A stretch of 64,000 bases of DNA, from the NCBI GenBank assembly GCA_963840455.1, contig CAWIYV010000014.1, forward strand, positions 352,001 to 416,000, in the 5' to 3' direction. Made by a program: the position numbers and the translations under genes. Numbering within the stretch: the stretch's first letter is position 1; the number at the start of each line of letters is the position of its first letter. Source of the stretch: Nitrospirota bacterium. GTDB lineage: Bacteria > Nitrospirota > UBA9217. The notes under the pieces were generated by a model. The model was not told where the DNA came from. It was given only the letters and a program-made list of their open reading frames with translations, and made no database searches. This document shows, one piece after another, positions 26,023 to 59,962 of the stretch.

Positions 26023-26140
26023 TTTCACTGCTGAGATCGCAGCCAAAAGGAGGCGCTTCTCAGCGAGAGCGCAGAGGTTTGAATTTTGGTTGCTGCTTCT
26101 TTACTTCTTGTCCGCGTGCTCCGCGTCCTCTGCGGTAAAA
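26023..26140. repeat. Family B 9-mer inverted-repeat element carrying the 24-bp micro-insert
   Basis: ACTGCTGAG ATCGCAG[..]AGCGCAGAG ... CTCCGCGTCCTCTGCGGT. Confidence 0.75.
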
Positions 26141-26159
26141 TATTTTCTCCGGAAGTAAA

Positions 26160-27284
26160 ATGAACCGCATCTACCTCGACTATAACGCCAGTACCCCCAT
26201 CGCGCCTCAAGTTCTTGAGGCGATGATGCCCTACCTTACGACGAAGTTCGGTAATCCTTCTTCCTCTCACCGCTTCGGCGTGGAATCCCGGGCAGCTATC
26301 GAGCAGGCGCGGGAGCGACTTGCGAAGCTTCTGGACTGCGAAGCATCAGAGATCATCTTTACAAGCGGCGCCACTGAGTCGAATAACATGGTGATCAAGG
26401 GGCTTGCCAAGGCTTCGGGCAAAGGCAAACATTTCATCACGTCGCAGATCGAACACCCGGCTGTGCTGGAGCCCTGCCGGCACGTCGAGCGCTTTGGCTA
26501 CACGGTCACCTATCTTCCTGTCGACCAATACGGCCTGATCGATCCGGCTGACCTAGAGAAGGCGATCACACCGGACACAGCGCTCATCACCATCATGCAT
26601 TCGAACAACGAGGTCGGCACCATCCAGGACATCAGGGCGCTCGCGAAGATCGCGGCTTCCCGCAATGTGCCGCTCCACACCGACGCAGCGCAGAGTTGCG
26701 GCAAGGTCCCGTGCAGGGTGGATGAGCTTGGCATTGACTTCCTGACCGTGGCAGGCCATAAGTTCTACGCGCCGAAGGGCGTGGGTGCACTCTATATAAG
26801 GAAGGGGACAAAACTTCCGCCGATGCTGCACGGAGCAGGCCATGAACGCGGCATGCGGCCAGGCACCGAGAATCTCGCGAGCGTCGTCGGGCTCGGCGCT
26901 GCCTGCGAGCTTGCGATGCCGCTCCTCTCGACGGAAGGGCCGCGCCAGAAGAAGCTGGGCAAGCGATTGCTCGATGGACTGAAGAATGCCGGCCTCAAGG
27001 TCCACCTGAACGGACATCCCGAGCAGAAGCTTCCGAATACCGGGAACATCAGTTTCGAGGGCTATGACGCGGCGACGGTGATGGAAGCGCTCGGGAAGGA
27101 CATCGCGGTCTCTCCCGGCGCCGCGTGCCATGGCGATACGGTGAATGCTTCCCATGTTCTCGTCGCCATGGGCGTAGACCCAAAACTCAGCCGGGGCGCT
27201 GTCAGATTTAGCCTGGGCAGGGAAACGATGGAAAAAGATATCGATGAAGTCGTCGAGATCTTGAAAAGAAAGCTGAAAAAATAG
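26160..27284 (+). CDS. iscS: Cysteine desulfurase (IscS/NifS family)
   Basis: YLDYNASTP, FTSGATE, HTDAAQ, GHKFYAPKG and SPGAACH motifs. Confidence 0.88.
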   Translation: MNRIYLDYNASTPIAPQVLEAMMPYLTTKFGNPSSSHRFGVESRAAIEQARERLAKLLDCEASEIIFTSGATESNNMVIKGLAKASGKGKHFITSQIEHPAVLEPCRHVERFGYTVTYLPVDQYGLIDPADLEKAITPDTALITIMHSNNEVGTIQDIRALAKIAASRNVPLHTDAAQSCGKVPCRVDELGIDFLTVAGHKFYAPKGVGALYIRKGTKLPPMLHGAGHERGMRPGTENLASVVGLGAACELAMPLLSTEGPRQKKLGKRLLDGLKNAGLKVHLNGHPEQKLPNTGNISFEGYDAATVMEALGKDIAVSPGAACHGDTVNASHVLVAMGVDPKLSRGAVRFSLGRETMEKDIDEVVEILKRKLKK

Positions 27285-27377
27285 CGCTTATCTCGCAGAA
27301 ACGCAGATCTCCCGAAGACGGAGATAGATCGTCGCCGGCCGACTGTTAGTCAGATCGATTCAACTAGTGTTTGTCTT

Positions 27378-27920
27378 ATGGATTGCATGATGAGAACCAT
27401 AGGTCAACTGTTTATTCTATTTTCCATGCTTCTCGAAACTGGTGCCCATGCAGCCGACAGGCTCGACAACCTTCTTATTCAAGGGGAAAACTTTAGTATA
27501 TCGGTTAAAGAACCGATGGGGTGGAAAGGTGACTCGAGCACTTCGGCAGACCGCGGAAATCTTGTGTTTCATCGAATAAATGAAAATCTTCAGAATGCCA
27601 AAGCGGTGATTCGGGTTCTTGTCGCGAATAAAACAGATGAGAATACCATCGAAGATCTGAAGTACGACATGGAAAGCTATCGAAAGCAATATCCAAAAGT
27701 TCAATTTAAAGACATTTCTGTCAAACATCCTGCGTATAGTATATATCCAAAGTTATTTTATGTTGATGCTAATTTCTATGAGTATGTTACCTATCTCAAC
27801 CCCGGCAAAAATTATCCTTACATCATATGTGTTTCCATGAATCTGAAAAAAAATGAGGCGAGCAAAGAGGATATCGAAGCGTATTCCTCTGTAATAGAAT
27901 CCTTAAAGGCGTTGAAATAG
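27378..27920 (+). CDS. Low-GC hypothetical secreted protein (cassette-like)
   Basis: AT-rich 180-aa ORF with a signal peptide (AHA); sharply different composition from its neighbours. Confidence 0.7.
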   Translation: MDCMMRTIGQLFILFSMLLETGAHAADRLDNLLIQGENFSISVKEPMGWKGDSSTSADRGNLVFHRINENLQNAKAVIRVLVANKTDENTIEDLKYDMESYRKQYPKVQFKDISVKHPAYSIYPKLFYVDANFYEYVTYLNPGKNYPYIICVSMNLKKNEASKEDIEAYSSVIESLKALK

Positions 27921-28002
27921 AGAGTGCCCATCACTCAAAAGGGTCGCTGAAAGCCGCACCATCGAGCGAAGAGTTGTCTAACGCAAAGCGCAGAACAACC
28001 CT

Positions 28003-29376
<1,374 letters not shown>

Positions 29377-29466
29377 AGACATTGCGGATTGCGGAATAGC
29401 CGAAACAGAAACAAAAAACCTCCTCTTCTAACGCCCTTATACGGACAAACCGGAACCAAAACCGTG

Positions 29467-29574
29467 GAACCGCCAAGGCGCAAAGGTCGCGAAGAAAATC
29501 TTGAAGATTTTATATTAAAGCAAAATCCCTTTTGTTTGTGACGTCCTTCGCGTGCTTCGCGCCTTCGTGGTAAA
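29467..29574. repeat. Family B 108-bp inverted-repeat element, copy of 40938-41045
   Basis: GAACCGCCAAGGCGCAAAGG...CTTCGCGCCTTCGTGGTAAA; ungapped alignment to 40938-41045. Confidence 0.85.
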
Positions 29575-29643
29575 TGTTTTTCCCGTTGTGCATAGGATGT
29601 AATTCTTTATTTACGAACGCCTGTCGCCTGACGATAGTTTCTC

Positions 29644-30483
29644 ATGATCGAACTTCTCAACCTCTCCAAGAACTTCGGTAGCCTCGCTGCGGTGAGATCC
29701 GTCTCATTCTCCGTCGGCAAGGGCGAGGTCTTCGGCCTGCTCGGCCCGAACGGCGCGGGCAAGACCACGACCATCCGCATGCTGACGACGCTCACTCAGC
29801 CGTCATCGGGCACTGCGCTGGTCGGGGGGCATGACATCCTTGCTGACCCCATCGCCGTCAAGCGGTCCATCGGCGTCATCCCCCAGCTCTTGAACCTCGA
29901 CATCGACCTGACGCTCGCCGAGAACCTCGAGTACCACGGCCGGCTGCACCGCATGGAGCGGCTGGACCGCGCCAGCCGCACGGACGAGCTGCTCAAGTTC
30001 GTCGGGCTCTGGGAAAAGCGGGACACGCCGGTGGAGCACCTCTCGGGCGGCATGCGGCGGAGGCTGCTGATCGCCCGCGGGCTCATGCACCGGCCGCAGG
30101 TCGTGTTCATGGACGAACCCACGGTGGGGCTCGACCCCCAGGCGAGGCACCTCATCTGGGAGCTGATCGAAGACCTGAAGCAGAGCGGCATCACCATCCT
30201 GCTCACGACGCACTACATCGAGGAGGCCGACCGGCTCTGCGACCGCGTGGCCATCATGCAGCAGGGCAAGGTCGTGACCCTCGGCGCGCCGGCGGACCTG
30301 AAGGCGCTCGTGGGACGCTACGTGGCGGAATGCCATGGACGCCACGACCTGCGGCGGCAATTCCGGTGGACGCGGGACGAGGCGCTCGACGCGGGCAAGG
30401 GGATGGGCTGCAATGTGACGGTCCGCGACGTGACGCTCGAGGATGTGTTCATCGAGTTGACGGGGGAGAGGATAGATACGTAA
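29644..30483 (+). CDS. ABC transporter ATP-binding protein (DrrA/NodI-like)
   Basis: GPNGAGKT, LSGGM, DEPTVGLD and TTHY motifs. Confidence 0.93.
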   Translation: MIELLNLSKNFGSLAAVRSVSFSVGKGEVFGLLGPNGAGKTTTIRMLTTLTQPSSGTALVGGHDILADPIAVKRSIGVIPQLLNLDIDLTLAENLEYHGRLHRMERLDRASRTDELLKFVGLWEKRDTPVEHLSGGMRRRLLIARGLMHRPQVVFMDEPTVGLDPQARHLIWELIEDLKQSGITILLTTHYIEEADRLCDRVAIMQQGKVVTLGAPADLKALVGRYVAECHGRHDLRRQFRWTRDEALDAGKGMGCNVTVRDVTLEDVFIELTGERIDT

Positions 30484-30536
30484 CGCAATTGCGGATTCGG
30501 ATCGCGGACTCCTGAAAGGCGTTATGCAGGACCCTT

Positions 30537-30631
30537 GAACCGCCAAGACGCAAAGAGCGCAAAGAACTGATTTATAATACCTTCAGCAAAAGATCTAGAC
30601 TTTCTTCGCGCCCTTCGCGTCTTCGCGGTGA
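30537..30631. repeat. Family B 9-mer inverted-repeat element
   Basis: AACCGCCAAGACGCAAAGAGCGCAAAG ... CTTCGCGCCCTTCGCGTCTTCGCGGT. Confidence 0.8.
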
Positions 30632-30729
30632 GGTGATTTGATCTTGATTTTATCGTGTTCATCCGTGGTTATTAATAGTCTGAGTTCTGCCTCTATCTTT
30701 GTTCATCGGTGGTTGCATAGGGTCATGCT

Positions 30730-31461
30730 ATGAATTTTTATCCTATCTTCTGGAAAGACATGCTGCTCATAACCAAGAAGCCCGGGAAATTCCTCGCGGC
30801 CAGCATGGTCACCCCGCTCCTCTATCTCGTCACCTTCGGCTGGGGGCTGGGCAGGGGCATGAGCATCGGCGGCGGGACCTACCTCGACTTTGTGCTGCCC
30901 GGTCTCCTGGCACTCTCGGCCATGAACAACAGCTTCGGCCCGGTCTCAACCTCGGTGAACGTGAGCAAGCTCTACACCAAGACCATCGAGGAGGTGCTGG
31001 TCTCCCCCGTGGGTCCCTGGTCCATTGCCCTCGGCAGGGCGCTCACGGGCACGGTGCGCGGGTTGTTCTCGGCATCGCTCCTGCTTATTGTCGGACTGGT
31101 CTCCGGGGTCCATGTGGACCTGTCGCCCTTCTTCTTTCTCGTGCTTGCGCTCACGGCCTTCTGCTTCTCCTCGGCCGCTGTCGCCGCCGCCATGGTCGCG
31201 AAATCGCACGAGGACATGTCGAACTTCAACAGCTTCGTCATCATCCCCATGTCCTTCCTCTCCGGGACCTTCTTCTCGCCCGACAAACTTCCGGAGCCCT
31301 TTCATAGTATGGTCCTGGTCTATCCCTTGACCCACGCGAGCCTCGTCCTCCGCACGCTTTCCACCGGCAGGGTGCCCGAAGCCGGATCGATCCTCATCCT
31401 CGCGGCCTACTCCGCGCTCTTCTTTTATCTCGCCGGCAGGACGGTGAAGCGGGTGGTATGA
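30730..31461 (+). CDS. ABC-2 type permease
   Basis: YLDFVLPG, PMSFLSGTFF and PLTH motifs; six TM segments. Confidence 0.9.
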   Translation: MNFYPIFWKDMLLITKKPGKFLAASMVTPLLYLVTFGWGLGRGMSIGGGTYLDFVLPGLLALSAMNNSFGPVSTSVNVSKLYTKTIEEVLVSPVGPWSIALGRALTGTVRGLFSASLLLIVGLVSGVHVDLSPFFFLVLALTAFCFSSAAVAAAMVAKSHEDMSNFNSFVIIPMSFLSGTFFSPDKLPEPFHSMVLVYPLTHASLVLRTLSTGRVPEAGSILILAAYSALFFYLAGRTVKRVV

Positions 31462-31621
31462 TCCTAACATGCTTCTTGAAACGCGATCCGGAATGAAGGA
31501 ACCGGATGACTGGAGAAGAAGCTCTGGTTCGTAGCGTATCGCATGAGCACAAACACGTCCCTGAAAAAGTGTATATAGGTAAATGCATTATTATTGATTT
31601 GTCATTGGCGGAAGGATAGAC

Positions 31622-32596
31622 ATGAGGACCAGTAAACCCCACGGGCTGAGAAATGCAGTCTTGGTTGCGTTGTTCCTTCTCAGCAGCGGGACACTTGCAA
31701 ACAGGTACTTGAATGATAGCGGATCACGCGACAAGAATCGTGTTATCGATAGGCCTGGCTCTTATGGGGTTAGCCGGCGGATTGTTGAGACTCCCGTCTT
31801 CTCGTTTTTGCCCAGATGGCCTCTCAAGAGAGGGGCCGTGTCAATCTCGCGGGAACGCAACGCCAGTGTATTGAAGAACGTGTTTGAGGTGTTCGATCCA
31901 TCACTGAGATCTTTTCTGACATCGGTGCCGATAATTTTGGATTCCTCGGCAAATACCGCGAAGGCCTATCCTGCAAAAGGCTACATTGGGGTCAGTCCAG
32001 ACTGGGACAATACCGTGCTTCAATCAGAGTATAGGGCGATTTATGAACAAAGGGGAATGAAGCCGGAGGATCCTGTATTCATGCTTCGCTTCAAGACGGA
32101 TTTGTTGATACACGAATTCCTGCACATACTCCAGGTCCACCAGGGAATTGATAGTCGTTTGTGTTACGAAGCGGTTGCGCGATGGTATAGAGATCCGCGG
32201 TATGGCATGCCGTCTCCGAGTGGCGTAGTCTACGCTGACACGACGAAAGACAGAAGACTTGATGCACTCGCGATGAATAGGATGAAATATATTGTATGGC
32301 ATGAGTTGTACAATTATCGAAAGTTAAGCGATGTGCCTCAGGACGAGAGTTGGAAGAATATGCATTATGGGGAAAGGTACCGGTTGGCGGAAAAGGGAGT
32401 GGAGGAGTTCGCCTACATCGGGCAAGAAATACTCTCCAGCGGAAGCAGTTCTGAGAACTACGTTAAGACAGGTCAGTGGTGCGATAAGGACTGGAAGAAT
32501 AAGAAGATGAGGTTGTTGGAGGTCTCCCCAGAAGTTATTGCAGTTTTCAGGGGCGTGTTCAATCCTGAATTGACGCGCCAGCAAATGCCGAACTAG
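31622..32596 (+). CDS. Lower-GC hypothetical exported protein with HExxH (HEFLH), putative zinc metallopeptidase
   Basis: 324-aa ORF with an N-terminal hydrophobic segment, LLIHEFLH and downstream EEFA. Confidence 0.65.
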   Translation: MRTSKPHGLRNAVLVALFLLSSGTLANRYLNDSGSRDKNRVIDRPGSYGVSRRIVETPVFSFLPRWPLKRGAVSISRERNASVLKNVFEVFDPSLRSFLTSVPIILDSSANTAKAYPAKGYIGVSPDWDNTVLQSEYRAIYEQRGMKPEDPVFMLRFKTDLLIHEFLHILQVHQGIDSRLCYEAVARWYRDPRYGMPSPSGVVYADTTKDRRLDALAMNRMKYIVWHELYNYRKLSDVPQDESWKNMHYGERYRLAEKGVEEFAYIGQEILSSGSSSENYVKTGQWCDKDWKNKKMRLLEVSPEVIAVFRGVFNPELTRQQMPN

Positions 32597-32657: not shown

Positions 32658-32700
32658 GAGAGCTGCACCTGTCTTCATAATCCTGTAGTTCGGTCCCCCT

Positions 32701-33243: not shown

Positions 33244-33318
33244 CCGCATCGTGCATCCATCGTCCTCGATTTTACCGCTCAGTATCCGCGAGAAGGCCCG
33301 TCAATGCCCTGATTCCGA

Positions 33319-37528: not shown

Positions 37529-37561
37529 CGCTATTATTGCGGATTGCGGAATGTGGATTTC

Positions 37562-37766
37562 GGATCGAAGATTCCCTGCAGCCGGCTGCAGGGAATCTCT
37601 AATCGCTCGCTAACCCGGCAGCACGCTGCGGGGAATGCGCTCGCTCCTGGATTTAAGCTCCCAGATGCATACTGCATGGAGCTTCGATCCTCAGGGTAGT
37701 ACGTTTATCCTAATCGCTCGCTATTCCCGCAGCAAGCTAAGGGGAACGCGCTCGCTCCTGGATTCA
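37562..37766 (-). mobile_element. Family A tandem elements (minus strand), preceded by a TGCGGAT tract
   Basis: Two CGCTCGCTCCTGGATT units with CCCGCAGC/GCTGCGGG-type hairpins. Confidence 0.85.
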
Positions 37767-39751: not shown

Positions 39752-40924
39752 ATGAAAAAGATCGCCATACTCGGTTCCACCGGCTCCATCGGCACCTCGA
39801 CGCTCGCGGTTGCGGAACAGTTCCCGGACCGGTTCAAGGTCGTGGCCATTGCCGGAGGGAACAACAGTAAGCTCCTGGAATCGCAGATCCGGAAGTTCAA
39901 ACCGTCCCTCACGGCCATTGCGGACGCGAAGGCCGCGGAATCCCTGCGGAAGAAGTGCAATGATATGCCGGTCAGGATCGTCTCGGGCGTGGAAGGGATG
40001 ATCGAGGTAGCGACAGCGGAGGATGCGGACATCACCGTGTCCGCCATCGTAGGCACCGCAGGCCTCGTGCCCACCATTGCGGCGATCCAGGCAGGCAAGG
40101 ACATCGCCCTGGCGAACAAGGAGGTGCTCGTCACCGCCGGGGAACTGGTCATGGCGGAGTGCCGCAGATGGAACGTACGGCTCTTCCCGGTGGACAGCGA
40201 GCACAGCGCCATCTTCCAGTGCCTGCATTCGGGACAGCGCGGCGACGTGAAGCGGCTCATTCTTACGGCGTCGGGCGGCCCGTTCCGGAACCATTCGAAA
40301 GATGATCTTGCAAAGGTGAGGCTGGCCGAGGCGCTCAAGCATCCGAACTGGAGCATGGGCAGGAAGATCACCATCGATTCGGCCACGCTCATGAACAAGG
40401 GGCTCGAGGTGATCGAGGCGCACTGGCTCTTCGGCATGGCGCCGGAGCAGATCAAGGTGCTGGTCCACCCTCAGAGCATCGTGCATTCGCTCGTGGAGTA
40501 CCGGGACGGATCCGTCGTTGCCCAGCTCGGCATGCCCGACATGAAGGGGCCCATTGCCTACGCACTTTCCTATCCAGAGCGGCTTCCCGATGTGTCGCCG
40601 GGTCTCGATCTCGCGTCCATCGCCACGCTTACCTTCCAGGAGCCGGACCGGGACCTGTTCCCCTGCCTGGGCTACGCCTATGATGCGCTCAAAGCGGGAG
40701 GCAGCATGCCGGCCGTCCTGTCCGCGGCCAACGAGGTGGCGGTCAGATATTTCCTGGAGGAGAAGATCGGGTTCCTCGATGTCCCCCGGGTCCTGAAGTT
40801 CGTCATGGAGGCCCACACACCGGTCTCCCTCAAGACCGTGGACGAGGCGCTTGAGGCGGACCTCTGGGCGCGGCAGGAGGCGGAAAAGGTCATTGCGGAT
40901 CTCGGATTGCGGATTGCGGATTAA
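39752..40924 (+). CDS. dxr: 1-deoxy-D-xylulose-5-phosphate reductoisomerase
   Basis: LGSTGSIG, ALANKE, PVDSEH and HPNWSMGRKITIDSAT motifs. Confidence 0.97.
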   Translation: MKKIAILGSTGSIGTSTLAVAEQFPDRFKVVAIAGGNNSKLLESQIRKFKPSLTAIADAKAAESLRKKCNDMPVRIVSGVEGMIEVATAEDADITVSAIVGTAGLVPTIAAIQAGKDIALANKEVLVTAGELVMAECRRWNVRLFPVDSEHSAIFQCLHSGQRGDVKRLILTASGGPFRNHSKDDLAKVRLAEALKHPNWSMGRKITIDSATLMNKGLEVIEAHWLFGMAPEQIKVLVHPQSIVHSLVEYRDGSVVAQLGMPDMKGPIAYALSYPERLPDVSPGLDLASIATLTFQEPDRDLFPCLGYAYDALKAGGSMPAVLSAANEVAVRYFLEEKIGFLDVPRVLKFVMEAHTPVSLKTVDEALEADLWARQEAEKVIADLGLRIAD

Positions 40925-42409: not shown

Positions 42410-43483
42410 ATGAATCCCATTCCCCGCAAGAAGACCCGCCAGATAACGCTCGGCCCCGTGAAGATCGGCTGGGGCGCGCCGGTGGTGGTGCAGTCCATGT
42501 GCAACACGAACACCCGGGACGTCGCGGCGACGCTGGCACAGATCGATCGGCTTGAGGCCGCCGGCTGTGAGGTCGTGCGGCTCGCGGTCCCGGACGAGGA
42601 CGCAGCGAAGGCGCTCGGGAATATCAGGAAGGGAACGAAGGTCCCCCTGGTCGCGGACATCCATTTCAGCCATACCCTCGCGATGGAAGCAGTGAAGCAG
42701 GGCGTGGACGGGCTACGGATCAACCCGGGCAATATCGGCGGCAAGGACAAGGTCAGCGAGGTCGTGAAGGCCTGCAAGGAAAGGAAGATACCCATCCGCA
42801 TCGGCGTGAACGCCGGCTCGCTCGAAAAGCATCTGCTCGAGAAGTACGGCCATCCCACGCCCGAGGCCATCGTCGAGAGCGCCTTCGGCCATCTACGCAT
42901 CCTCGAGGACCTGGATTACGGGGAGATCAAGGTCTCGCTCAAGGCATCGGACGTGCTCACGACGGTTGAGGCGTACCGGCTCTTCGCGACGCAGTCGGAC
43001 TACCCCGTGCACATCGGCATTTCCGAGGCGGGGACCATCCACGCCGGCACGATCAAGTCGAGCGTGGGCCTCGGTATCCTTCTGGCCGAGGGCATCGGCG
43101 ATACCATGCGGGTCTCGCTTACCGCAGACCCGGTCGAGGAGGTCCGCGTCGCCTACGAAATATTGAAATCCCTCAAGGTCCGGCAGCGCGGCGTGAACCT
43201 CATCTCCTGCCCCACCTGCGGCAGGACCGAGATCAACATCATCGGACTTGCCGAGGAAGTAGAGCGGCGGCTCAGTCACATCAAGGAGCCGCTCACGGTG
43301 GCGGTCATGGGCTGCGTGGTGAACGGCCCCGGCGAGGCGCGCGAGGCGGACATCGGGATAGCCGGCGGCAAAGGCGTGGGAATGCTGTTCAGGCACGGCG
43401 AGATCGTCAGGAAGTTCGATGAGAAGGACCTGGCGGATGTGCTGGTGAAGGAAGTGGAAGAGATCGTTAAGAGTAGACAGTAG
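42410..43483 (+). CDS. ispG: (E)-4-hydroxy-3-methylbut-2-enyl-diphosphate synthase
   Basis: VQSM, RINPGNIG, SCPTCGR and MGCVVNGPGE motifs. Confidence 0.97.
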   Translation: MNPIPRKKTRQITLGPVKIGWGAPVVVQSMCNTNTRDVAATLAQIDRLEAAGCEVVRLAVPDEDAAKALGNIRKGTKVPLVADIHFSHTLAMEAVKQGVDGLRINPGNIGGKDKVSEVVKACKERKIPIRIGVNAGSLEKHLLEKYGHPTPEAIVESAFGHLRILEDLDYGEIKVSLKASDVLTTVEAYRLFATQSDYPVHIGISEAGTIHAGTIKSSVGLGILLAEGIGDTMRVSLTADPVEEVRVAYEILKSLKVRQRGVNLISCPTCGRTEINIIGLAEEVERRLSHIKEPLTVAVMGCVVNGPGEAREADIGIAGGKGVGMLFRHGEIVRKFDEKDLADVLVKEVEEIVKSRQ

Positions 43484-43601
43484 ACGGTAGACGGTAAACA
43501 AGAGAAAAAAGCAGACGGTAAACGGTAGCGGCAAACAGGAGACAGGAAACTGCAAGCATCAAAGCCTTTCCCGTATACCGTATGCTGTATACCGTCTACC
43601 G
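43472..43601. repeat. 7-nt-period inverted element
   Basis: AGTAGAC AGTAGAC GGTAGAC GGTAAAC ... GTATACC GTATGCT GTATACC GTCTACC. Confidence 0.75.
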
Positions 43602-45311: not shown

Positions 45312-45396
45312 CAGTTCAAAGCGCACAGTTCAAAGTTCATGGTGTGCATGCACAGTCTGTTTTTTCTCTGAACGACGAACTCAGAACTCTGAACTG
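45312..45396. repeat. 7-nt-period inverted element
   Basis: CAGTTCA AAGCGCA CAGTTCA AAGTTCA ... TGAACGA CGAACTC AGAACTC TGAACTG. Confidence 0.75.
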
Positions 45397-51164: not shown

Positions 51165-51985
51165 ACGAGATCCGGGACAATGTGGCGCAGATCTGCATCG
51201 AGGCCGCCTACGACCTGAGCGAGGACGTCTGCACGGCCTTCGACCGGGCGCAGGAGACCGAGACCGCGCCTGCGGCCAAAGCGGTCATCGGCCTCCTGAA
51301 AGAGAACGCCCGCATCGCCCGGGAGGACCGCATCCCCATCTGTCAGGACACGGGCATCGCCGTGTTCTTCGTCGAGATTGGACAGGACCTGCGGATCAAG
51401 AATGGGTTCCTGACCGACGCCATCAATGAAGGGGTGCGGAAAGGCTACAAGGAGGGCTACCTCCGGAAGTCCGTGGTCGACCCCCTGACGCGGAAGAACA
51501 CCGGCGACAATACCCCGGCAATCATCTACACCGAGGTTGTGCCGGGCGACAAGCTCAGGATCTCCTTCATGCCCAAGGGCGCGGGGAGCGAGAACATGAG
51601 CGCCATCAGGATGCTCCGCCCCACCGAAGGGATCGAGGGCATCAAAGATTTCGTTCTGGAATGCGTTAGGAAGGCAGGGGCCAATCCCTGTCCGCCGATC
51701 GTTGTCGGCGTCGGCATCGGCGGCACGTTCGAGAAGGCTGCGGTGATGGCGAAAAAGTCGCTCCTTCGCCATATCGGCAGCCCCAATCCGAAGCTCGAAC
51801 TCGCGGCGCTCGAAGAGGATCTGCTCAAGGCGGTGAACCGGATGGGCATCGGGCCCGAGGGGTTGGGCGGCGAGGTGACTGCCATGGCCGTGCACGTGGA
51901 GAGCCATCCGTGCCATATCGCGAGCCTGCCCGTGGCGGTGAACATCAACTGCCACGCAGCACGGCACAAGACGATCATTCTGTAA
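51146..51985 (+). CDS. Fe-S fumarate hydratase class I, alpha subunit
   Basis: CQDTG, KGAGSEN, NPCPP and CHAARH motifs. Confidence 0.92.
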
Positions 51986-51989
51986 AGAA

Positions 51990-52141
51990 ACCACGGATGA
52001 CCAAAAGTAGGCGCCTCTAGGCGACACGGCCAGAACCTTTTCACCACAGAGGACGCAGAGAACGCTGAGGAAGATTCAATGTCTTTTTAATAATTCAAGC
52101 TCAAATCTTTTCTCTGCGCGCTCCGCGATCTCTGCGGTAAA
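51990..52141. repeat. Family B elements with the 24-bp micro-insert
   Basis: CCACGGATGA[insert]CACGG, then ACCACAGAGGACGCAGAGAACGCTGAG ... CTCTGCGCGCTCCGCGATCTCTGCGGT. Confidence 0.8.
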
Positions 52142-52154
52142 TACATGGTGATTC

Positions 52155-52721
52155 ATGACTGAACCTATCAAAATAACTCCTCCCCTGACCGACGAGGTCA
52201 TCACAAAGCTCAAGGCAGGCGACCGGGTACTGATCACCGGTGTTATCTACACGGGCAGGGACATGGCGCACAAGGCCATGGTCGAGGGCCACAGGAAGGG
52301 GCAGCCGTTCCCCTTCGATCTTGCGGGACAAGTACTGTACTATACCGGTCCTACTCCGGCGCCGCCGGGACGGCCCATTGGTGCGGCGGGCCCGACCACG
52401 AGCTACCGCATGGACAAGTATGCGCCGTACTTACTTGAGCACGGGCTCAAAGGCATGATCGGAAAAGGACCGCGCGGAACCGAGGTCAAGGACTCCATCA
52501 GGAAGAATACGGCCGTCTATTTTGCCGCCATCGGCGGTGCAGGCGCGCTCATCTCAAAGGCCATCAAGAAGGCCGAGGTCATCGCGTACCCTGAGCTCGG
52601 CACCGAGGCGGTCATGCGGCTCGAGGTGGAGGACTTCCCCGCCTTTGTGGTGAACGATGTCCACGGCGGAGACCTTTACGAGATGGGAGTCAGGGAGTAC
52701 GGCGAAGTAAAAGAGAAATAA
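52155..52721 (+). CDS. Fe-S fumarate hydratase class I, beta subunit
   Basis: TGRDMAH, GPTTSYRM and MIGKG motifs. Confidence 0.92.
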   Translation: MTEPIKITPPLTDEVITKLKAGDRVLITGVIYTGRDMAHKAMVEGHRKGQPFPFDLAGQVLYYTGPTPAPPGRPIGAAGPTTSYRMDKYAPYLLEHGLKGMIGKGPRGTEVKDSIRKNTAVYFAAIGGAGALISKAIKKAEVIAYPELGTEAVMRLEVEDFPAFVVNDVHGGDLYEMGVREYGEVKEK

Positions 52722-52732
52722 GAAAAAAGTGA

Positions 52733-52866
52733 TTTTACCGCAGAGGACGCAGAGGAAAAAACGACCGAACACGAATGTCACGAATAAACGAATAGCACGA
52801 ATGAATGCAGGACCTTGATTTAGATCTATTCGTGTCATTAGTCCCATTCGTGTCATTCGTGATAAA
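52733..52866. repeat. Family B arm plus ACGAAT-type inverted repeat
   Basis: ACCGCAGAGGACGCAGAG; CACGAATGTCACGAATAAACGAATAGCACGAAT ... ATTCGTGTCATTAGTCCCATTCGTGTCATTCGTG. Confidence 0.75.
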
Positions 52867-52895
52867 GCTTTTGATCATGCTTCAGGAGGATTTAG

Positions 52896-53429
52896 ATGAC
52901 GATCAAGTCAAAGATCAGGACCGTGCCAAACTACCCCAAGAAAGGCATCATGTTCCGCGACATCACCACGCTCATCAAGGACCCCGTGGGGTTCCGGCTG
53001 GTGATCGACACGATCACGCAGCGGTACATCCATGAGAACTACAACTTCAACGTCATCGTGGGTATCGAATCGCGCGGGTTCATCATCGGCGGCGCGCTGG
53101 CCTACACGCTCGGCAAGGGATTCGTGCCCATCCGAAAGAAGGGCAAGCTGCCGGCCGAGGTGGTCTCGCAGGAGTACCAGCTCGAGTACGGCACGGACAG
53201 GATTGAGGTCCACAAGGACGCCATCAAGAAGGGCGACCGGGTGCTGCTGATCGACGACCTGCTTGCCACAGGCGGCACGGCGCTTGCTGCCGCGGCCCTC
53301 ATCGAGAAGCTTGGCGGTACGATCGTGGAGATGGCCTTCATCGTGGATCTGCCGGACGTGGGCGGGAAGAAGAAGCTCAAGGAGAAGGGTTATAAGGTCT
53401 ACGCGTTGACGGAGTTCGAAGGGGATTAA
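52896..53429 (+). CDS. apt: Adenine phosphoribosyltransferase
   Basis: FRDITT, ESRGF, RKKGKLP and DDLLATGGT motifs. Confidence 0.96.
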   Translation: MTIKSKIRTVPNYPKKGIMFRDITTLIKDPVGFRLVIDTITQRYIHENYNFNVIVGIESRGFIIGGALAYTLGKGFVPIRKKGKLPAEVVSQEYQLEYGTDRIEVHKDAIKKGDRVLLIDDLLATGGTALAAAALIEKLGGTIVEMAFIVDLPDVGGKKKLKEKGYKVYALTEFEGD

Positions 53430-53456
53430 GACCATCCCGGACAAGGACGGAACGGG

Positions 53457-53490
53457 AAAGGCCCTGCTCGGTATTTGCAGGGCCTTTTTT
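53457..53490. terminator. Rho-independent terminator between convergent genes
   Basis: AAAGGCCCTGC...GCAGGGCCTTTTTT. Confidence 0.8.
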
Positions 53491-53519
53491 ATTGCATGGT
53501 CATTAATAGAGCAGCGGGG

Positions 53520-54803
53520 TCAGTGCACCGAGCAGGAGATGCACGGGTCGTAGGACCGGACGAGCATCTGGGCGAGGAGCTCGATGTCCCGGTCCTTCTT
53601 TCCTTCTTTTGCATACTGCTCCGCCAGCGCGGTCAGGTCATGCTGGATGTTGGCGTGGTTCTGGCTCGTAGGGATCACGCAGTCGCTCTTAACGATCCTG
53701 CCTTCCCTGTCGAACTCGTAGCAGTGGTAGAGGATCCCGCGCGGTACTTCCACGGCACCCACGCCGACACCTTCCTTCGGCACCACCTTCTGCCGTGGCT
53801 CCTTCCAGTCCGAATCGATCATCCCGTTGATCAGGTCGATCGACTCCATGACCACATGCACGCATTCCACGAGCTGGGCGATGTTGTTCATGAAGGGATT
53901 GTGGTTCACCGGTCTGAGCCCGAAGCCTTGCGAGATCTCTTTGGCTGCCGGGTGGAGGAACTCGAAGTTGTTGTTCAGCCGGGCGAGGGCGCCGACTGCC
54001 AGGGACGCGCGCGAGAGCTTGCTCCATTTGGAGGTCGACGTGGAGACCATATATTCGTTCGTCATTAGCCGGTACTCGTGCTCTTTCTTCACCACGCCGT
54101 CGGTCGAGACGAGGTCGCCGCCGATGAAGGGATAATCGCTCTTGCCCTTGAGCGACACGAACTCGGTTTCGCGGCTGAAGTCCGGCAGGCTGAACTGGTG
54201 GAAGAGCTCGGCGGTCCGGGTGAGATCATCCACGATGTCCTGGAGCCGGTACTTGAACGTGCGGAGCTCTTCCTTCTTCGGCAGCATGGTGAACCCGCCC
54301 ACGATTGTCCGGGTCGGGTGCATGCGCCTGCCGCCGACGCAATCGCAGAGGTCGTTCGCCAGGAGCTTGATCTTGGCTGCGCGCTTCACCACGTCGGGGT
54401 GGGAGTTGATGAGCGGGAACACGCTGCCCACGTTCACGAAATCCGGGGCCGCAAGGAAGTAGAGATGGAGGATGTGGCTCTGGAGCGTCTCCATGTGCTT
54501 GAGCAGGATGCGAAGCTTCTTCGTCTGGTCCGTCGGCACGATGCCGAAGGCGTTCTCAACCGCCCGGATGCTGGCGAGCGTGTGCCCGATGGAGCAGATA
54601 CCGCAGATCCTGCCGCAGATCCAGGGCGCGTTCTCCCACTTCTTGTTGACCAGCATGGCCTCGAAGAAGCGCGGCGTCTCGACGACCTCCCAGGCCGCTT
54701 CCTCGACCTTCCCGTCCTTGATGGCGATCCTGATGTTGCCGTGGCCTTCGACCCGGGTGAGATGGTGTATGTCGATGGACTGGGAAATTTTCATATGAGT
54801 CAA
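53520..54803 (-). CDS. Group 3b-type [NiFe] hydrogenase large (alpha) subunit
   Basis: RVEGHG, RICGIC..H, EVPRG and DPCISCSVH. Confidence 0.93.
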   Translation of the reverse strand: MTHMKISQSIDIHHLTRVEGHGNIRIAIKDGKVEEAAWEVVETPRFFEAMLVNKKWENAPWICGRICGICSIGHTLASIRAVENAFGIVPTDQTKKLRILLKHMETLQSHILHLYFLAAPDFVNVGSVFPLINSHPDVVKRAAKIKLLANDLCDCVGGRRMHPTRTIVGGFTMLPKKEELRTFKYRLQDIVDDLTRTAELFHQFSLPDFSRETEFVSLKGKSDYPFIGGDLVSTDGVVKKEHEYRLMTNEYMVSTSTSKWSKLSRASLAVGALARLNNNFEFLHPAAKEISQGFGLRPVNHNPFMNNIAQLVECVHVVMESIDLINGMIDSDWKEPRQKVVPKEGVGVGAVEVPRGILYHCYEFDREGRIVKSDCVIPTSQNHANIQHDLTALAEQYAKEGKKDRDIELLAQMLVRSYDPCISCSVH

Positions 54804-54808
54804 TAGTA

Positions 54809-54891
54809 TTTGCCACAGGGCACACAGAGTTCACCGACGAGAGAAGGATCGCGAGCTTTTCACTGTGCTCTCGGTGACCTTGGTGGCAAAA
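54809..54891. repeat. Family B 9-mer inverted-repeat element
   Basis: TTGCCACAGGGCACACAGAGTTCACCGA ... CTGTGCTCTCGGTGACCTTGGTGGCAA. Confidence 0.65.
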
Positions 54892-54904
54892 ATCCCTTCT
54901 GTAG

Positions 54905-55714
54905 TTATTTTGCAGTCTGCCTTCTTAATTCTGCTGCGTGTACAGCGAATCCCCCGAAGCACTCCAGCCGATCGAGCATCGTCTCCTCGGAGAATCCGTA
55001 CTTCTTCATGATCTCCCGCATCTGGTCCACATTGGCGTCCACGGTCGGGCCGCGGCAGCCCCAGCATCCGAAGCGGCTGTTCGGGCACCATGAATCGCAT
55101 CCGCCCCGGGTGATGGGCCCCAGGCAGGGTTCGCCCAGGTCGAAGAGGCAGGTGTTCTCGTTCGCCTTGCACTCCATGCAGACAGGGTATTTGGGATGGA
55201 CGATGGTCTTCCCGAGCACCACGTTCGTCACGATCTTCTCGACCTCTTCCTTCTTGACCGGGCATCCGTAGATTTCAAGGTCCACCTTCACGAAGTCCCC
55301 GAGCGGTCTCGCCTCGTCGTTCGTCTCGATGGGGTTGGATCCGTAGACCTCCCGCCTGACCCACGCGGCGTCCTGGAACCGGTTCCTGAGCTGGTTCACA
55401 CCGCCGAAGCAGGCGCAGGAGCCGAAGGCCACGAGTACGGCTGCCTGCCCGCGGATTTTCTTAAGCCGCTCGATCTCATCGCTGCGGGTGACGCTGCCCT
55501 CGACAAAAGCAATGTCGTAATCATCATGCTTTTCCGTCATGGCCTCGCGGAATGTCCGCACGTTTACGAGGGACAGAAAGTCGAGCAGCGTGGCCTCGTT
55601 GTTCACAAGCTGGAGCTGGCAGCCCTCGCAGGAGGAGAGCTCGAAGAAGGCGACCTTCGGACGGTGAACGGGCAGTCCGAGGTAGGTCCTGGTCTCGCTG
55701 GCTTTCGAGTCCAT
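54905..55714 (-). CDS. [NiFe] hydrogenase small (delta) subunit
   Basis: SSCEGC, GSCACFGG, GCP, CLGP and CWGCRG motifs. Start MDSKASE near 55714. Confidence 0.9.
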   Translation of the reverse strand: MDSKASETRTYLGLPVHRPKVAFFELSSCEGCQLQLVNNEATLLDFLSLVNVRTFREAMTEKHDDYDIAFVEGSVTRSDEIERLKKIRGQAAVLVAFGSCACFGGVNQLRNRFQDAAWVRREVYGSNPIETNDEARPLGDFVKVDLEIYGCPVKKEEVEKIVTNVVLGKTIVHPKYPVCMECKANENTCLFDLGEPCLGPITRGGCDSWCPNSRFGCWGCRGPTVDANVDQMREIMKKYGFSEETMLDRLECFGGFAVHAAELRRQTAK

Positions 55715-56619
55715 TAGATGGCCTCTTTCAGGTTCATGACGGTCCAGTAGTCGAACACCGGCCCCTTGAGGCAGGTGTAGGTGGAGCCCACGTTGCAGCG
55801 GCAGCACTTGCCCATGCCGCAGTGCATCCGGCGCTCCAGGTCCACGAACATCTTCTGCATGGGCACGCCGCGCTCGGAGAGCATGGTGCAGACGGACTTG
55901 AACATGACGGGCGGGCCGCAGACGATGGCATACGTGTTGGCGAGGTAGGAATCGTCCCGGCCCTTCACGATCTCCTCCAGGACCTTGGTGGTGAATCCCA
56001 CCGGCCCGGTCCAGGAGGGATCTGCTTTTTCCAGGATGATGTGGAGCCCGATGTCATCCTTCTTCCACATCTCGTACTGGAACTTGAAGAGCAGGCGGGA
56101 GGTGTCCTTCGTGCCGTACACGATGTCCACTTTGTCGAACATGCTCCGGTGCTCCTGCACGTGGGCGATGGGCGATCGCAGGGGAACGAGGCCCAGCCCG
56201 CCTGCGATGAGCAGGATGTTCCCGCCGTGCATGCGCTCCATGGGGAAGCTGGTGCCGAAGGGGCCGCGGATACCGACGCGCGTGCCACGCTCGGCCCGGC
56301 TCAGGAAGGTCGTCAGGTTTCCCACGGCTCGGATGCAGAGTTCGATGTCCTCATGGTTGCTCGGCGACGACGAAATGGAGATGGGCGATTCGCCGATGCC
56401 CGGAAGTTCGAGCATGATGAACTGGCCGGGGCGGAAGGAGAAGTGCCTGCGGTCCTCGTTGTCCAGTATCCGGATGCGGTACAGGTTCTCCTGTTCCGTG
56501 AGCTTGTATACGCTCGTGATCTCGGCCTTGTAAGTGAACTCGAAACTGTCGAGGTCGGCTTTGCGATGGTACCTGTGGTAGTGGGGGTGCACGTCGTGGA
56601 ACGCGAGACGGTGGTCCAT
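55714..56619 (-). CDS. Hydrogenase FAD/NAD(P)-binding (gamma) subunit
   Basis: RPGQF, RGPFG, AGGLG, CGPP and CGMGKCCRC motifs. Confidence 0.92.
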
Positions 56620-56620
56620 A

Positions 56621-57664
56621 TCAGTGCTCCTCTCCCCGGACGCTTGCGATCACCTCGGGCACGGTGATGCCGGCAAGGCAGGCCTCGCCGCAGCGGCCGC
56701 AGCCCACGCAGAGAGACTCCTCGTAGGCTTCAACGAACCCGCGGTGCTTGTGGTAGTAGCGGTACTTGAGCCTGGTGCTCCGTTCGGGCCGGAAGTTGTG
56801 GCCGCCGGCGACCTCGGCGAAGTCCACGATATTGCAGGAATAGAGCGATTTGGTCTTCTTCGCGTGCTGGAGATCCACATCCACGGTCTCCTCCACGCCA
56901 TAGCAGTAGCAGGTGGGGCAGACGTTGGCGCAGGTGCCGCAGCCCAGGCACTTGTCGCCCCACTGCTTCCAGACCGGGGACTGGAACTCCATGTCCAGGA
57001 TCTTGGTGAGGTCCGTGGTGTCCACATGTGCGGTGAACTGCTTGTTCTTCTCCGCCACGGTCCGCATGTACTGCAGGTGGTCGGATTCCTTCGGTGCCTC
57101 CGTTTTCAGGTCCTTGGCGATCTCGTAGGCCTCGGCCGAAAGGATCTCGATGAAATACTTGTCGCCGATGTCCGTCAGGAAGAGATCGAAGCCGTGGAGC
57201 ACGGTGTCGGCGCCCATGGAGCGGCAGAAACAGAAGGGCTGGGGCCGGCAGTCGATGCCGATGATGAACATGTTCTTCCGCTTCGCCGCGTAGTAGGGCA
57301 TGGGATAGACAGGGCCCATCAGCACCTTGTCGAGCTTGTTCAGGGCGTTGATGTCGCAGGCGTGGAGCCCGAAGAGCACATAGGGCCGGTCGATGTTGTA
57401 GCCGATCTGCTTGGTCCATTCCCTGCCGCTTATCGTGAAGGTGGCGAGGTCCTCGCGGAAGGGGAGGAAGTACCGCTTTGCCGGGAGGCGGGTAGTGGTG
57501 TAGCTAAGGTCGAGCTTCTGAAAATCCGCTATCTGCTCGAAGGCGTAGAGGGGGGCGCCGTTCCGGTCCTTGCCCGTCGGGACCGGTCCGACAACCGCGT
57601 TCGTCTCGGCGAGCATGTTGTAGAGAGTTTTGATCTCGTTTTTTTCGGCGACACGGAAGAGCAT
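56621..57664 (-). CDS. Hydrogenase 4Fe-4S (beta) subunit
   Basis: [16 protein letters not shown] and [11 protein letters not shown] motifs. Confidence 0.92.
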
Positions 57665-57838
57665 GGTCGGCTACCACGATGAAAAAGTCAGATGAAAAAG
57701 ATGAAGCTCAAAAGTGAAACTAGGCTAATTATAGCAGGCAGTGGCGAATATAATGCAATTTATTATTCATTGCGGGAATTTGGAGGGACGCGGATTCCGC
57801 CTTGAAGCAGGAAAGGTCATTCGTTGCGATAGGAAGGA

Positions 57839-59788
57839 TCAGCTCAGGCCTGACACGAGCTGGTGGAGCGCCGGGTAATCGTTCTGCGCAGTGGTGGTCT
57901 CTTCCCGCAGCAGCCGGAGCGCCTCGGGGACGTACTTCAGGAAATACTTCTTGCCCTTCAACGCGGAGAGGAACCCGTACGCACCAAGTGCCTGCATGTG
58001 GCGCTGGAGTCGGCAGGAAAGCAGTGTTTCGCGGAAAGCGTCGGCGTCGAAGTCCTTCGCAGATCTTTTCATCTCCTCGATATAGTACGAGATAAGCCGC
58101 TCCCGCATCGTGTCGTCGAGCCGGTGGTAGGGGTCCCAGAGGATCGAAGCGAGGTCATAGGCCGGCGGGGCCATGCGGGCGCCCTGGAAGTCGATGACGT
58201 GGGGAATACCGGCTTTCATCATGATGTTCTGACTCTGAAAGTCCCGGTGGATGATCGCCGGCAGGAAGGAACTGACGGACTTCGCGAGGTTGTGAAGATC
58301 CTCATCGAGCGCTTTCCGGTCCGCGATCCGCGCTTTTCTGAGGCCGGTGACGAACCGCTCGAGGAAGTATGTTGTTTCCCAGCGCAAATGGTCGTAATCG
58401 AACATCCGTGATGCAAGCGGCGGGCACTCGTCGACGTGCTCCGATGCCCGGCCGTGGAGGCCGACGAGGATGTCGAGCACGCGGCGATAAAGGGCTTCAA
58501 CGATGTCGGCGTCATGGGGGAACCTGAGCCAGGAGTGGAGCGACAGGTCGCCGAGGTCCTCGAAAAGCGCACGCTTGCCCGCCTCGTCGGTCCCGAGGAG
58601 GCGCGGAACCGGAACACCGTGGCTATGGAAGAACTTCGTGTAGGTGAGATGGCGTTCGTAGTCGGGATCCTCGCGGCCGCACTCCATCAGGACCGCGGAA
58701 AGCGTCCCCTTTTGCACCCGGAAATAGCGGCGGTCGGAACCGCCGAGGCCGATGAGGACCGCCTTCGCGATGCTGCCTTTGCCCGCGGCCGGGGCGTCGA
58801 AGTGGGAGAACAGCGGGCCGGCGAGGCCGACGTCCTTTTTCATCGCCCAATGGGTCGACGGCTGCATCTCGATCTCCCTGAGCGGGAGCTCGTAGTCGGG
58901 GCCGATGATGCAGTTCTCGTGGCTGCCGGCGACCTCCGTGCCGGGCATGATGATGCAGTTCCTGAGCGTGCTGCCGCCCCGCACCGCACAGCCCTGTTCG
59001 ATCACCGCGTAGCCGTCCACATCGATCTCCCCGGCTCGCGCCGAGGAGGAGCAGTAGACCGTCTCCCCGATCATCCGAAGCGTGTCCAGGACCGCCGCGG
59101 CGTAGCTCGTGGGAGTGCCGATATCGCTCCAGTAGGAGCCGGTGAAGTCCACGGTCTTGACCTTGTAGCCGGCCCGGGAAGCGGCGATCCATGCGTCGGT
59201 CGCATGGGACACGCCGGGGGACAGGAACCTGAGGATGTCGGGCGAATAGACGGCCACGCCGGTGTAGGCGACCTTCTTGCCGATGCGGGCAGGGTTCGGC
59301 CGCGAGTCGCCCGGGTTCTCGACGTCGATCACGCAGTCGTTCTCGTCAATGACGACGTTGCTGAGCGCGGGATGCCGATGGGTCACGAGGGTGGCGATGT
59401 TGCCCGAGGCGAAATGGGCCTCGGTGAGCTTGCTGAACGAGATGTCCAGCAGGATGTCGGCGTTGTGGACGATGAAATGTCCCTCGGCAAGCAAGGGTTC
59501 GGCGTTCTTGAGCGCTCCGCCGGTGCCGAGCAGGGCGTCCTCATGAAAGAACGTTACCTGGTTCGCGTAGGAAGAGCTCCGGAACCACTCGCGGATCATC
59601 TCCGGCCGGTGATGGAGGTTGACGCCGATCTTGCCCTCGCAGATCGAGGTGAGCTTCCCAAGGATGATGCCGATGAGCGGCCGGCCGAGAAGCGGCAGCA
59701 GCGGTTTCGGGATGTGGTTCGTCACCGGCCTGAGCCGCTCGCCGAGGCCGGCTGCGGGGAGGAATATGTTGAGCGGGATCTTGGGCAT
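57839..59788 (-). CDS. Fused nucleotidyltransferase (MurU-like) and APH-family sugar kinase (AmgK-like)
   Basis: N-terminal AAGLGERLRP..PKPL; C-terminal GSDRRYFR, HRDFQSQN, IDFQGA and QRHMQALGAY. Confidence 0.85.
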   Translation of the reverse strand: MPKIPLNIFLPAAGLGERLRPVTNHIPKPLLPLLGRPLIGIILGKLTSICEGKIGVNLHHRPEMIREWFRSSSYANQVTFFHEDALLGTGGALKNAEPLLAEGHFIVHNADILLDISFSKLTEAHFASGNIATLVTHRHPALSNVVIDENDCVIDVENPGDSRPNPARIGKKVAYTGVAVYSPDILRFLSPGVSHATDAWIAASRAGYKVKTVDFTGSYWSDIGTPTSYAAAVLDTLRMIGETVYCSSSARAGEIDVDGYAVIEQGCAVRGGSTLRNCIIMPGTEVAGSHENCIIGPDYELPLREIEMQPSTHWAMKKDVGLAGPLFSHFDAPAAGKGSIAKAVLIGLGGSDRRYFRVQKGTLSAVLMECGREDPDYERHLTYTKFFHSHGVPVPRLLGTDEAGKRALFEDLGDLSLHSWLRFPHDADIVEALYRRVLDILVGLHGRASEHVDECPPLASRMFDYDHLRWETTYFLERFVTGLRKARIADRKALDEDLHNLAKSVSSFLPAIIHRDFQSQNIMMKAGIPHVIDFQGARMAPPAYDLASILWDPYHRLDDTMRERLISYYIEEMKRSAKDFDADAFRETLLSCRLQRHMQALGAYGFLSALKGKKYFLKYVPEALRLLREETTTAQNDYPALHQLVSGLS

Positions 59789-59850
59789 GGGATAGATGCA
59801 GAAGTCAAAAATCAGGAGTCAGGTGAAAATCCAAGGGATGCAAACGGCTT

Positions 59851-59962
59851 TTCACCCCGAAGACGCGACCAAAAGTAGGCGCTTCTAAGCGAGGACGCCA
59901 GGAAATCCTGGACGGGGACTCTTAAGTCGTTACCTTCGCGACCTTAGCGCCTAAGCGGTTCA
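59851..59962. repeat. Family B element with the 24-bp micro-insert
   Basis: CCGAAGACGCGA[insert]GGACGCCAGG ... CCTTCGCGACCTTAGCGCCTAAGCGGTT. Confidence 0.7.

Follow-up and report, generated by a model that had tools for sequence, protein, structure and literature searches.

What kind of sequence is it that, with little more than twenty nucleotides, interrupts the arms of quite different intergenic repeats? The question is raised by a 64-kb stretch of a Nitrospirota genome (here called the window, G000:C14:352001-416000, from the genome G000, of 4.03 Mb in 14 contigs), in which the initial annotation described three copies of a 24-mer, all on the plus strand. The three copies were confirmed (Table 1), with 3 matches at up to 3 mismatches versus 0.00 expected from 100 dinucleotide-preserving shuffles, and each of them does split the purine-rich arm of a different unit subtype, namely CGCAG/CGCTGAG (copy 1), CACGGAT (copy 2) and CGCGAAG/CGCTAAG (copy 3). 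The sequence itself is a 23-nt unit, CCAAAAGKAGGCGCYTCTMRGCG. There is good support for its moving as one exact unit, and it is probably a non-autonomous mobile micro-element moved in trans, an enzyme of the HUH/Y1 type being the best guess for the activity that moves it.

The 23-nt unit, its ends and its targets

The unit is composed of an 11-nt A-rich/GTAG head followed by a hairpin of 4-5 bp, and is found inserted between a purine and an A; the last A of the 24-mer belongs to the target. Close uninterrupted sister arms exist for 6 of the 14 copies in G000, and in the 27 sister-arm matches listed the two flanks are separated by one A (24 matches), by G (2, one locus being matched twice) or by nothing (1). 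The filled form is therefore the empty form plus 23 nt placed just before the A, and the length of 24 bp first given to the unit had to be corrected by one, both by these arms and by the contigs of near-identical strains described below. Within the window, the boundary of copy 1 was deduced from paralogous empty arms, GCAGAGATCGCCG-A-GAGCGCAGAG, and paralogous empty arms, CGCGAAGACGCGA-A-GGACGCGAAG, also exist for the host of copy 3. One repeat from methanotrophs was seen both filled (L107) and empty (L133), and in a reverse-transcriptase gene the frames on either side of the element are 26 nt apart, which in our own reading leaves 3 nt, one codon, once 23 are subtracted.

The bases around the unit were compared in a set of 163 non-redundant copies (14 from G000, 28 from its relatives and 121 from named records). 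The base directly before the unit (position -1) is mostly A (87 copies) or G (66), seldom T (9) and never C. After the unit comes the A, and the three bases behind it are C or G (140 copies), a purine (154) and C (105), the usual insertion site being R^A-S-R-C on the purine-rich strand. Insertion neither duplicates nor deletes target bases. The GA...GA that bounds two of the window copies, which had been taken for a possible 2-bp duplication, is a coincidence, as GA stands directly 5' of the element in only 23 of the 163 copies.

The split arms of the three window hosts read tttcactgctgagatcgcag / gagcgcagagg, accacggatga / cacggcc and ttttcaccccgaagacgcga / ggacgccagg, and in two of the three a complementary pyrimidine-rich arm lies 40-70 nt downstream. 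The host of copy 1 lies in the spacer that runs from the upstream stop codon to the following gene, and its DNA (26015-26145) folds at -22.6 kcal/mol (z -2.04). Near copy 2 no complementary arm was found, and the junction was classed as unpaired downstream. The orientation of the element in its hosts is constant, with the CCAAAAG end outward and the hairpin toward the remainder of the arm and the loop, and in palindromic hosts in which both arms are filled (L158, L153) the copies mirror each other.

A preference for repeat arms over random positions is clear from the larger set: in 95 of 162 copies, one of the 5-mers in the preceding 12 nt is found again within the 16 nt that follow the element, versus 562 of 5000 random genome positions (this test superseded a strict period detector, which had flagged 30 of 161 copies). 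With the element taken out, 107 of 157 junctions lie within the 5' arm of a predicted hairpin, and 126 of 157 (about 80%) pass either the 5-mer or the hairpin-arm test; many of the other 31 are arms or REP-like (repetitive extragenic palindrome) stems by eye. There are clear exceptions, in a group II intron reverse-transcriptase gene (L073), before istB (L055), in a transposase-like gene (L117) and in the atpA-atpG spacer (L118), and the idea that the element occurs only inside repeat arms has therefore to be relaxed to predominantly; these arms are those of hairpin-forming or tandem-unit repeats in general and not just arms made of 9-mers.

Table 1. Positions of the micro-element copies, their hosts and other repeats in the window
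Feature	Position	Strand	Remarks
Micro-element copy 1	26043..26066	+	unit 26043-26065 plus shared target A 26066; GGAG variant, TCTC loop
Host hairpin repeat, copy 1	26023..26141	+	left arm 26023-26042 resuming 26066-26078; right arm ~26108-26141
Micro-element copy 2	52001..52024	+	unit 52001-52023 plus A 52024; C-G stem variant
Host, copy 2	51990..52037	+	lone CACGGAT-type arm, accacggatga / cacggccagaacc
Separate hairpin repeat	~52038-52142		uninterrupted; 3' of the copy 2 host
Micro-element copy 3	59869..59892	+	unit 59869-59891 plus A 59892
Host hairpin repeat, copy 3	59849..59962	+	left arm 59849-59868 resuming 59892-59902; right arm ~59933-59962; folded
Tandem array	17488-17528		
Tandem array	18200-18241		
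Tandem array	21799-21858		
Tandem array	23864-23889		
Tandem array	40892-40922		
Tandem array	43472-43601		
Tandem array	45313-45395		

The 3' hairpin had been described as compensatory. Folded as DNA, each copy forms a 4-bp stem with a tetraloop at -3.1 to -3.6 kcal/mol (z -0.7 to -1.3), and because this energy is no better than that of shuffles, support for the hairpin comes from comparison. Positions 15 and 20, for which the search pattern permitted all four base combinations, are C-G in 84, T-A in 75, T-G in 3 and C-A in 1 of the 163 copies, that is, a Watson-Crick pair in 159. One copy in a congener alters both sides of the adjacent pair (GCAC...GGTG), and in related elements the stem is kept while the loops differ. 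The covariation of the stem was thus upheld, with a hairpin that by itself is weak.

Presence and absence of the unit at the same site were found when public contigs were compared with positions 51500-60500 of the window. At 59869, exactly 23 nt are left out in one contig each from runs X1 and X5, which belong to different studies and are ~99% identical to the window over 214 nt; apart from the missing unit, the X1 contig (59806-60039) has 2 substitutions and one 3-letter insertion. The contigs lacking the 23 nt carry a GTC insertion behind 59981 and two substitutions and therefore represent a distinct strain. The placement of the deletion cannot be shifted, because the adjoining bases differ, and a deletion guided by the flanking GCGA...GCGA repeat would be expected to remove 24 nt where 23 are missing. 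At 52001 the contigs jump from 51972 to 52154, the region being replaced and hence uninformative for the element.

Among the congeners, only G003 keeps the same host repeat at an intergenic site of the window, at 59869, and it is filled there at the same position; the other two sites cannot be compared because the congeners carry quite different repeats, intergenic turnover being fast. The element of G003 is identical in 24 of 24 positions, versus 142 of 174 aligned positions (with 23 gap columns) in the rest of the intergenic region, and by our own calculation 24 straight matches at 81.6% identity have a probability of ~0.008. This could reflect constraint, or else re-insertion or homogenisation. 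The site is filled in two species and empty in ~99% identical strains, which is explained most simply by exact excision of the unit within the species and less simply by its independent gain at a hot spot; the direction of the change, loss or gain, is deduced and was not observed. As for the empty orthologous sites proposed as a check, one was thus provided by the X1 and X5 contigs and none by the congeners.

Copy number and spread among bacteria

At up to two mismatches, G000 contains 14 copies, 7 per strand, of which 6 are exact, 4 differ at one position and 4 at two. They are located in arms of the CGCGAAG, CGCAG/CGCTGAG, CACGGAT, CGCAAAG and CGCTAAG types or in arm-like purine-rich runs, and two further matches with 5 mismatches also lie within arms. 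A 26-nt variant (G000:C11:881961-881986), in a CGCGAAG-type arm, has two extra bases (GC) that lengthen the stem. A de novo k-mer block scan of G000 recovered other repeat modules and not the micro-element, because its exact copies in this genome are too few.

The element was then counted in other genomes, with the reversed motif pattern as specificity control. It is carried by 14 of 41 related genomes: by all 6 of the genus including G000 (14, 63, 92, 6, 66 and 98 copies), by 8 of 19 other genomes of the same family (1 to 26 copies each) and by none of the 16 from ten other families of the phylum, whereas the reversed pattern gave 0 matches in all 41. In the family of Methylobacter tundripaludum, 8 of 61 sampled genomes have it (60, 18, 7, 3, 2, 2, 1 and 1 copies), and in the richest one 43 of the 60 copies are identical. 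A scan for the exact motif over one genome per prokaryote species found at least 123 loci, and the 80 rows with titles are labelled Nitrospir* (25), Methylobacter or Methylococcaceae (23), Sulfuricella, Sulfurimicrobium or Sulfuricellaceae (11), Geobacter, Geotalea or Geobacteraceae (7) and other (14), the last comprising Methylophilaceae, Burkholderiales, Dongiaceae, Solimonas, Spongiibacteraceae, unclassified proteobacteria and one 'Bacillales' metagenome-assembled genome. Three of the rows listed are cultured strains, Methylobacter tundripaludum SV96, Methylobacter svalbardensis LS7T4A and Geotalea toluenoxydans JCM 15764. The distribution is therefore patchy, burst-like and spread across phyla.

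In 201 cyanobacterial genomes there were 3 single matches at 3 mismatches, the same number as for the reversed control and thus at chance level; 2.9 million viral contigs gave 0 matches and no phage carrier, and in plasmid records a near-full copy is present in one only. Rfam at its gathering score gave 0 matches across the whole window. No resemblance to rRNA was detected among the flanks of the 163 copies; the 23S rRNA gene was not found in the G000 assembly, even though its marker-gene completeness is 100%, and for that reason an origin of the motif from a conserved RNA is conceivable in G000.

Sister micro-elements, in which the head is kept and the loop or stem differs (e.g., no Y base; CATGAG or CCTGAG loops), were observed at L181, L203, L289, L179, L270, L207, L262, L263, L222, L184 and L008:1407 (minus strand), with GCAAAAGGAGACGTCTCTAGGCGA as another form. 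Several are within REP-like stems of marine gammaproteobacteria.

Probable mobilisation and alternative explanations

The element has no coding capacity, and some enzyme must therefore move it in trans. Its invariant ends, the lack of duplication or loss of target bases, the single hairpin, the foldable targets and the strict orientation point to dedicated cutting and joining rather than to polymerase slippage, and the best-known activities with such a signature are the single-strand HUH/Y1 transposases. The layout of GTAG plus hairpin may also match that of REP elements. In this scheme a single-strand DNA cutting and joining enzyme, for which the HUH/Y1 type is our best guess, would place the element precisely between a purine and the A and would probably take it out again just as exactly, the preferred targets being the purine-rich 5' arms of hairpin-forming or tandem-unit intergenic repeats; a single-stranded intermediate would then be expected. 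The ultra-short parasite of a parasite that the initial annotation had proposed agrees with what was found, an optional unit with sharp ends in many unrelated repeats, with patchy bursts and an exact 23-nt difference between strains.

Several observations weigh against this proposal. Whereas the transposon substrates known for HUH enzymes carry hairpins at both ends, the micro-element has one only, at its 3' end, which is thermodynamically marginal, and its two main stem variants could be two lineages rather than the product of repeated compensatory change, the covariation being therefore poor at counting events. The Pfam family Y1_Tnp is present in 33 of the 41 relatives and in 55 of the 61 methanotroph-family genomes, unrelated to copy number; one genome has 33 Y1 matches and no copy of the element, and in G000 itself the Y1 genes are reduced to two remnants, both interrupted by an in-frame stop. 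The excess of copies on the G-rich strand is weak, 12 of 15 in G000 and 37 of 66 in three other genomes (replication direction being approximated roughly by GC skew over 20 kb). The empty allele at 59869 is known from one contig per run, not from raw reads, and no new insertion was directly observed. Finally, a 147-aa gene resembling RAYTs (REP-associated tyrosine transposases), discussed below, lacks a homologue in all six genomes of the genus of G000, including the four with 63 to 98 copies.

Candidates for the mobilising enzyme were considered among Y1 and RAYT genes, and Y1_Tnp showed no correlation with the element over the 41 relatives and the 61 methanotroph-family genomes. Close orthologues of the 147-aa RAYT-like gene (91-100% identity) exist only in the three richest methanotroph genomes (60, 18 and 7 copies). 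The gene was nonetheless rejected as mobiliser, as it has no homologue in the window's genus and is flanked by other hairpins, and because of the former its link with the element is read as shared ancestry. A degenerate micro-element in a REP-like stem lies at a conserved position just upstream of this gene (L299:1900-2030, L300:1860-1990, L302). The replication-strand bias of the first sample was likewise abandoned once it did not hold up in the second. In G000, an IS200-type tnpA (G000:C10:393728-394087; L178:1729-2088, minus strand) has an in-frame TAG where the homologue of G004 has a tyrosine codon (YKKE*HLVW in G000, YKTEYHLVW in G004). The decay of the Y1 genes fits the small, partly decayed copy set of this genome, which is one observation. 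It is quite possible, if somewhat short of probable, that the copies belong to a family, shared across phyla, of the smallest mobile elements known from bacteria, inserting and excising exactly by means of a yet-unrecognised enzyme or mechanism and tied to none of the transposase families examined.

Among the alternatives, the one that deserves most attention, even if it is unlikely, is a functional module, that is, a binding site or RNA motif of benefit to the host and maintained by selection. It might be a hairpin recognised by a protein in hairpin repeats of 3' untranslated regions, and it would spread when repeats recombine or undergo gene conversion and when repeats containing it are transferred horizontally. 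The full identity of the G003 orthologue amid diverged flanks and the covariation of the stem are what such a module would show, and so is the location of most copies behind genes, the flanking gene pairs being co-directional in 27 cases, convergent in 9 and divergent in 1. A transcription-strand bias initially seemed to point the same way, with 19 copies sense and 8 antisense to their co-directional flanking genes, but it was not reproduced in a second sample (20 vs 18; loci of G001 overlap slightly between the two) and was discarded. A letter-exact identity across phyla would moreover require an extremely conserved partner, and none is suggested by the 0 Rfam matches in the window; close relatives differ by 0 to 98 copies, some copies split mobile-element genes, near-identical strains lack one copy exactly, and gene conversion is unable to reach hosts that lack homology. 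It is less likely still that the copies are scars or solo ends of a larger element that targets these repeats, e.g., joined termini of insertion sequences. Sharp ends and no coding capacity would be expected of a scar, insertion sequences are known to favour such repeats as targets, and a truncated 14-nt left half does lie beside a full copy at L271. In G000, however, all 14 matches to the left half are directly joined to a right half, with no split form, and the sole stray right-half match is a chance match in a coding region; elsewhere, a left half with another continuation was a chance or coding match or a loop variant, and no recurrent long form appeared among the ~120 matches listed. The long versions enclosing a recombinase or transposase that the scar hypothesis anticipated were accordingly absent from G000 and not recurrent among those matches, and the 43 identical copies in one genome would need equally many identical excisions of an unseen parent.

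A by-product of replication or repair, produced by template switching or quasi-palindrome correction at stalled hairpins with housekeeping enzymes only, is very improbable. It would account for the absence of any dedicated enzyme among the genes found, for hairpin arms as targets and for the hosts in which both arms are filled symmetrically (L158, L153), as arm-to-arm copying would give; but the ends are invariant whatever the flanking microhomology, the loss at 59869 is of 23 nt where the GCGA/GCGA homology predicts 24, insertions occur in hosts that share no sequence with donor arms, and a housekeeping route should have spread the element well beyond 8 of 61 and 14 of 41 genomes. That the motif is a fixed segment of a single repeat subfamily can hardly be entertained. 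Nearly all copies are inside repeats, as that explanation demands, yet these belong to arms of many subtypes (CGCGAAG, CGCAGAG, CACGGAT, CGCAAAG, CGCTAAG, CGCAGATT, CACGAAA and REP-like stems), each of them far commoner without the motif than with it, and the possibility, which the initial annotation had named as a refutation of its own reading, is ruled out by this variety of flanks.

Known small repeats and the place of the micro-element

The closest known kind of sequence is that of the small dispersed repeats (SDRs), which in the Nostocaceae reportedly form families SDR1-8 of 21-27 nt, described by Elhai et al. The micro-element resembles them in its size class of 23 nt, its lack of coding capacity and its dispersal (163 copies with diverse flanks), in its precise nesting in one orientation within repeats or palindromes (126 of 157 copies in a tandem-unit or hairpin-arm context), and in having a site filled in one strain and empty in a close relative (59869, one contig per run). 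SDR5 is a 21-nt repeat module (PMC13756078) whose exact insertion point is between bases 3 and 4 of the HIP1 palindrome (PMC4390886), SDRs have been reported in Nostocaceae only (PMC5861425), and their mechanism and function were given as unknown in 2026 (PMC13756078); the work of Elhai et al. is also cited in PMC3116915. The micro-element differs in its sequence, being at chance level in cyanobacterial genomes, in its presence in several phyla and in its target, R^A in purine-rich arms instead of HIP1, and is best classed with the SDRs, as a variant that occurs across phyla. The impression that it was not a described element is consequently right for this sequence, which was not found in print, and wrong for its kind: substrings of the motif had no match in the literature searched. 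Geobacter genome papers report many 'multicopy nucleotide sequences', including 6-42 nt direct repeats and palindromes, and their supplements may list the motif.

Other families of small repeats share some of its traits. Like REPs and their inverted doublets, REPINs, the micro-element is extragenic, forms a hairpin and has a high and variable copy number. REPs are 20-40 nt long and a GTAG directly 5' of the stem is one of their hallmarks; the micro-element has GTAG (GGAG or GCAG in some copies) directly 5' of its 4-5 bp stem and is found beside or inside REP-like stems, but it is much shorter, with a stem far shorter than those of REPs, and nearly all of its copies are single, not inverted doublets, both arms being filled in few hosts only (L153, L158). 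No cognate RAYT was found for it: the methanotroph gene is flanked by other hairpins and was not found in the window's genus. With IS200/IS605 elements and their miniature derivatives, which transpose as single strands by HUH enzymes, it shares the lack of target duplication, the exact gain or loss of the unit (with the direction of change deduced as stated), an asymmetric structure that includes a hairpin but lacks terminal inverted repeats, and the need for a short sequence next to one of the ends; it differs in its 23 nt with a single 3' hairpin, where known substrates need two, in lacking a consistent lagging-strand-template bias and in having no transposase linked to it, Y1 genes being near-ubiquitous and uncorrelated. 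Miniature inverted-repeat transposable elements (MITEs) are also non-autonomous, multi-copy and intergenic, but the micro-element has neither terminal inverted repeats nor target duplication, is several-fold smaller and resides inside MITE-like hairpin repeats.

The repeats that surround the element were also recorded. Many spacers open right after the stop codon with tandem arrays of 7-9-mers, some with a complementary array downstream, the units being GGACACGG (x5), GTCAGGA (x6), ATTGCGG (x4), AGTAGAC (x4) and others. High-copy modular repeats, seen at 37555-37640 of the window and genome-wide (AATCCAGGAGCGAGCGCAT, 194 copies; TTATTCTAATCGCTCGCTAACCCC, 108; CGAAGATTCCCTGCAGCTTGCTGCAGGGAGCTTCAA, 98), join into composite elements. 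In the congeners G001, G005 and G002 (L172:1700-3100, L173:600-6600, L174:1800-3200, L175:700-2200), genes of ~325 aa code for a Y1_Tnp domain joined to a C-terminal helix-turn-helix, the latter with a weak resemblance to the C-terminal domain of DnaA. They are bracketed by inverted repeats, GGGGACGTTG... / ...CAACGTCCCC, outside which lie gene-specific short tandem units, e.g., TAGGTGTCCCC x5. In G000 such a gene is present only as a broken remnant. The ~325-aa Y1 genes could act as autonomous partners for the intergenic repeats built of tandem units.

The micro-element is smaller than members of the usual classes of mobile DNA, and the only described examples that small are the cyanobacterial SDRs, which are confined to one bacterial family and whose function was still given as unknown in 2026 (PMC13756078). 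Its exact ends, simple target rule, natural polymorphism, bursts of 60-98 copies in unrelated phyla and cultured hosts could make the question accessible and reveal a new mode of DNA cutting and joining at hairpins. Intergenic hairpin repeats are habitats for smaller parasites. In groups that carry the element, such as Nitrospirota, methanotrophs and Geobacter-like bacteria, 23-nt indels of this kind will complicate alignments, the annotation of repeats and the typing of strains. If the copies do constitute a cross-phylum family of the smallest mobile elements, the puzzle of SDR mobility would become open to experiment through cultured carriers.

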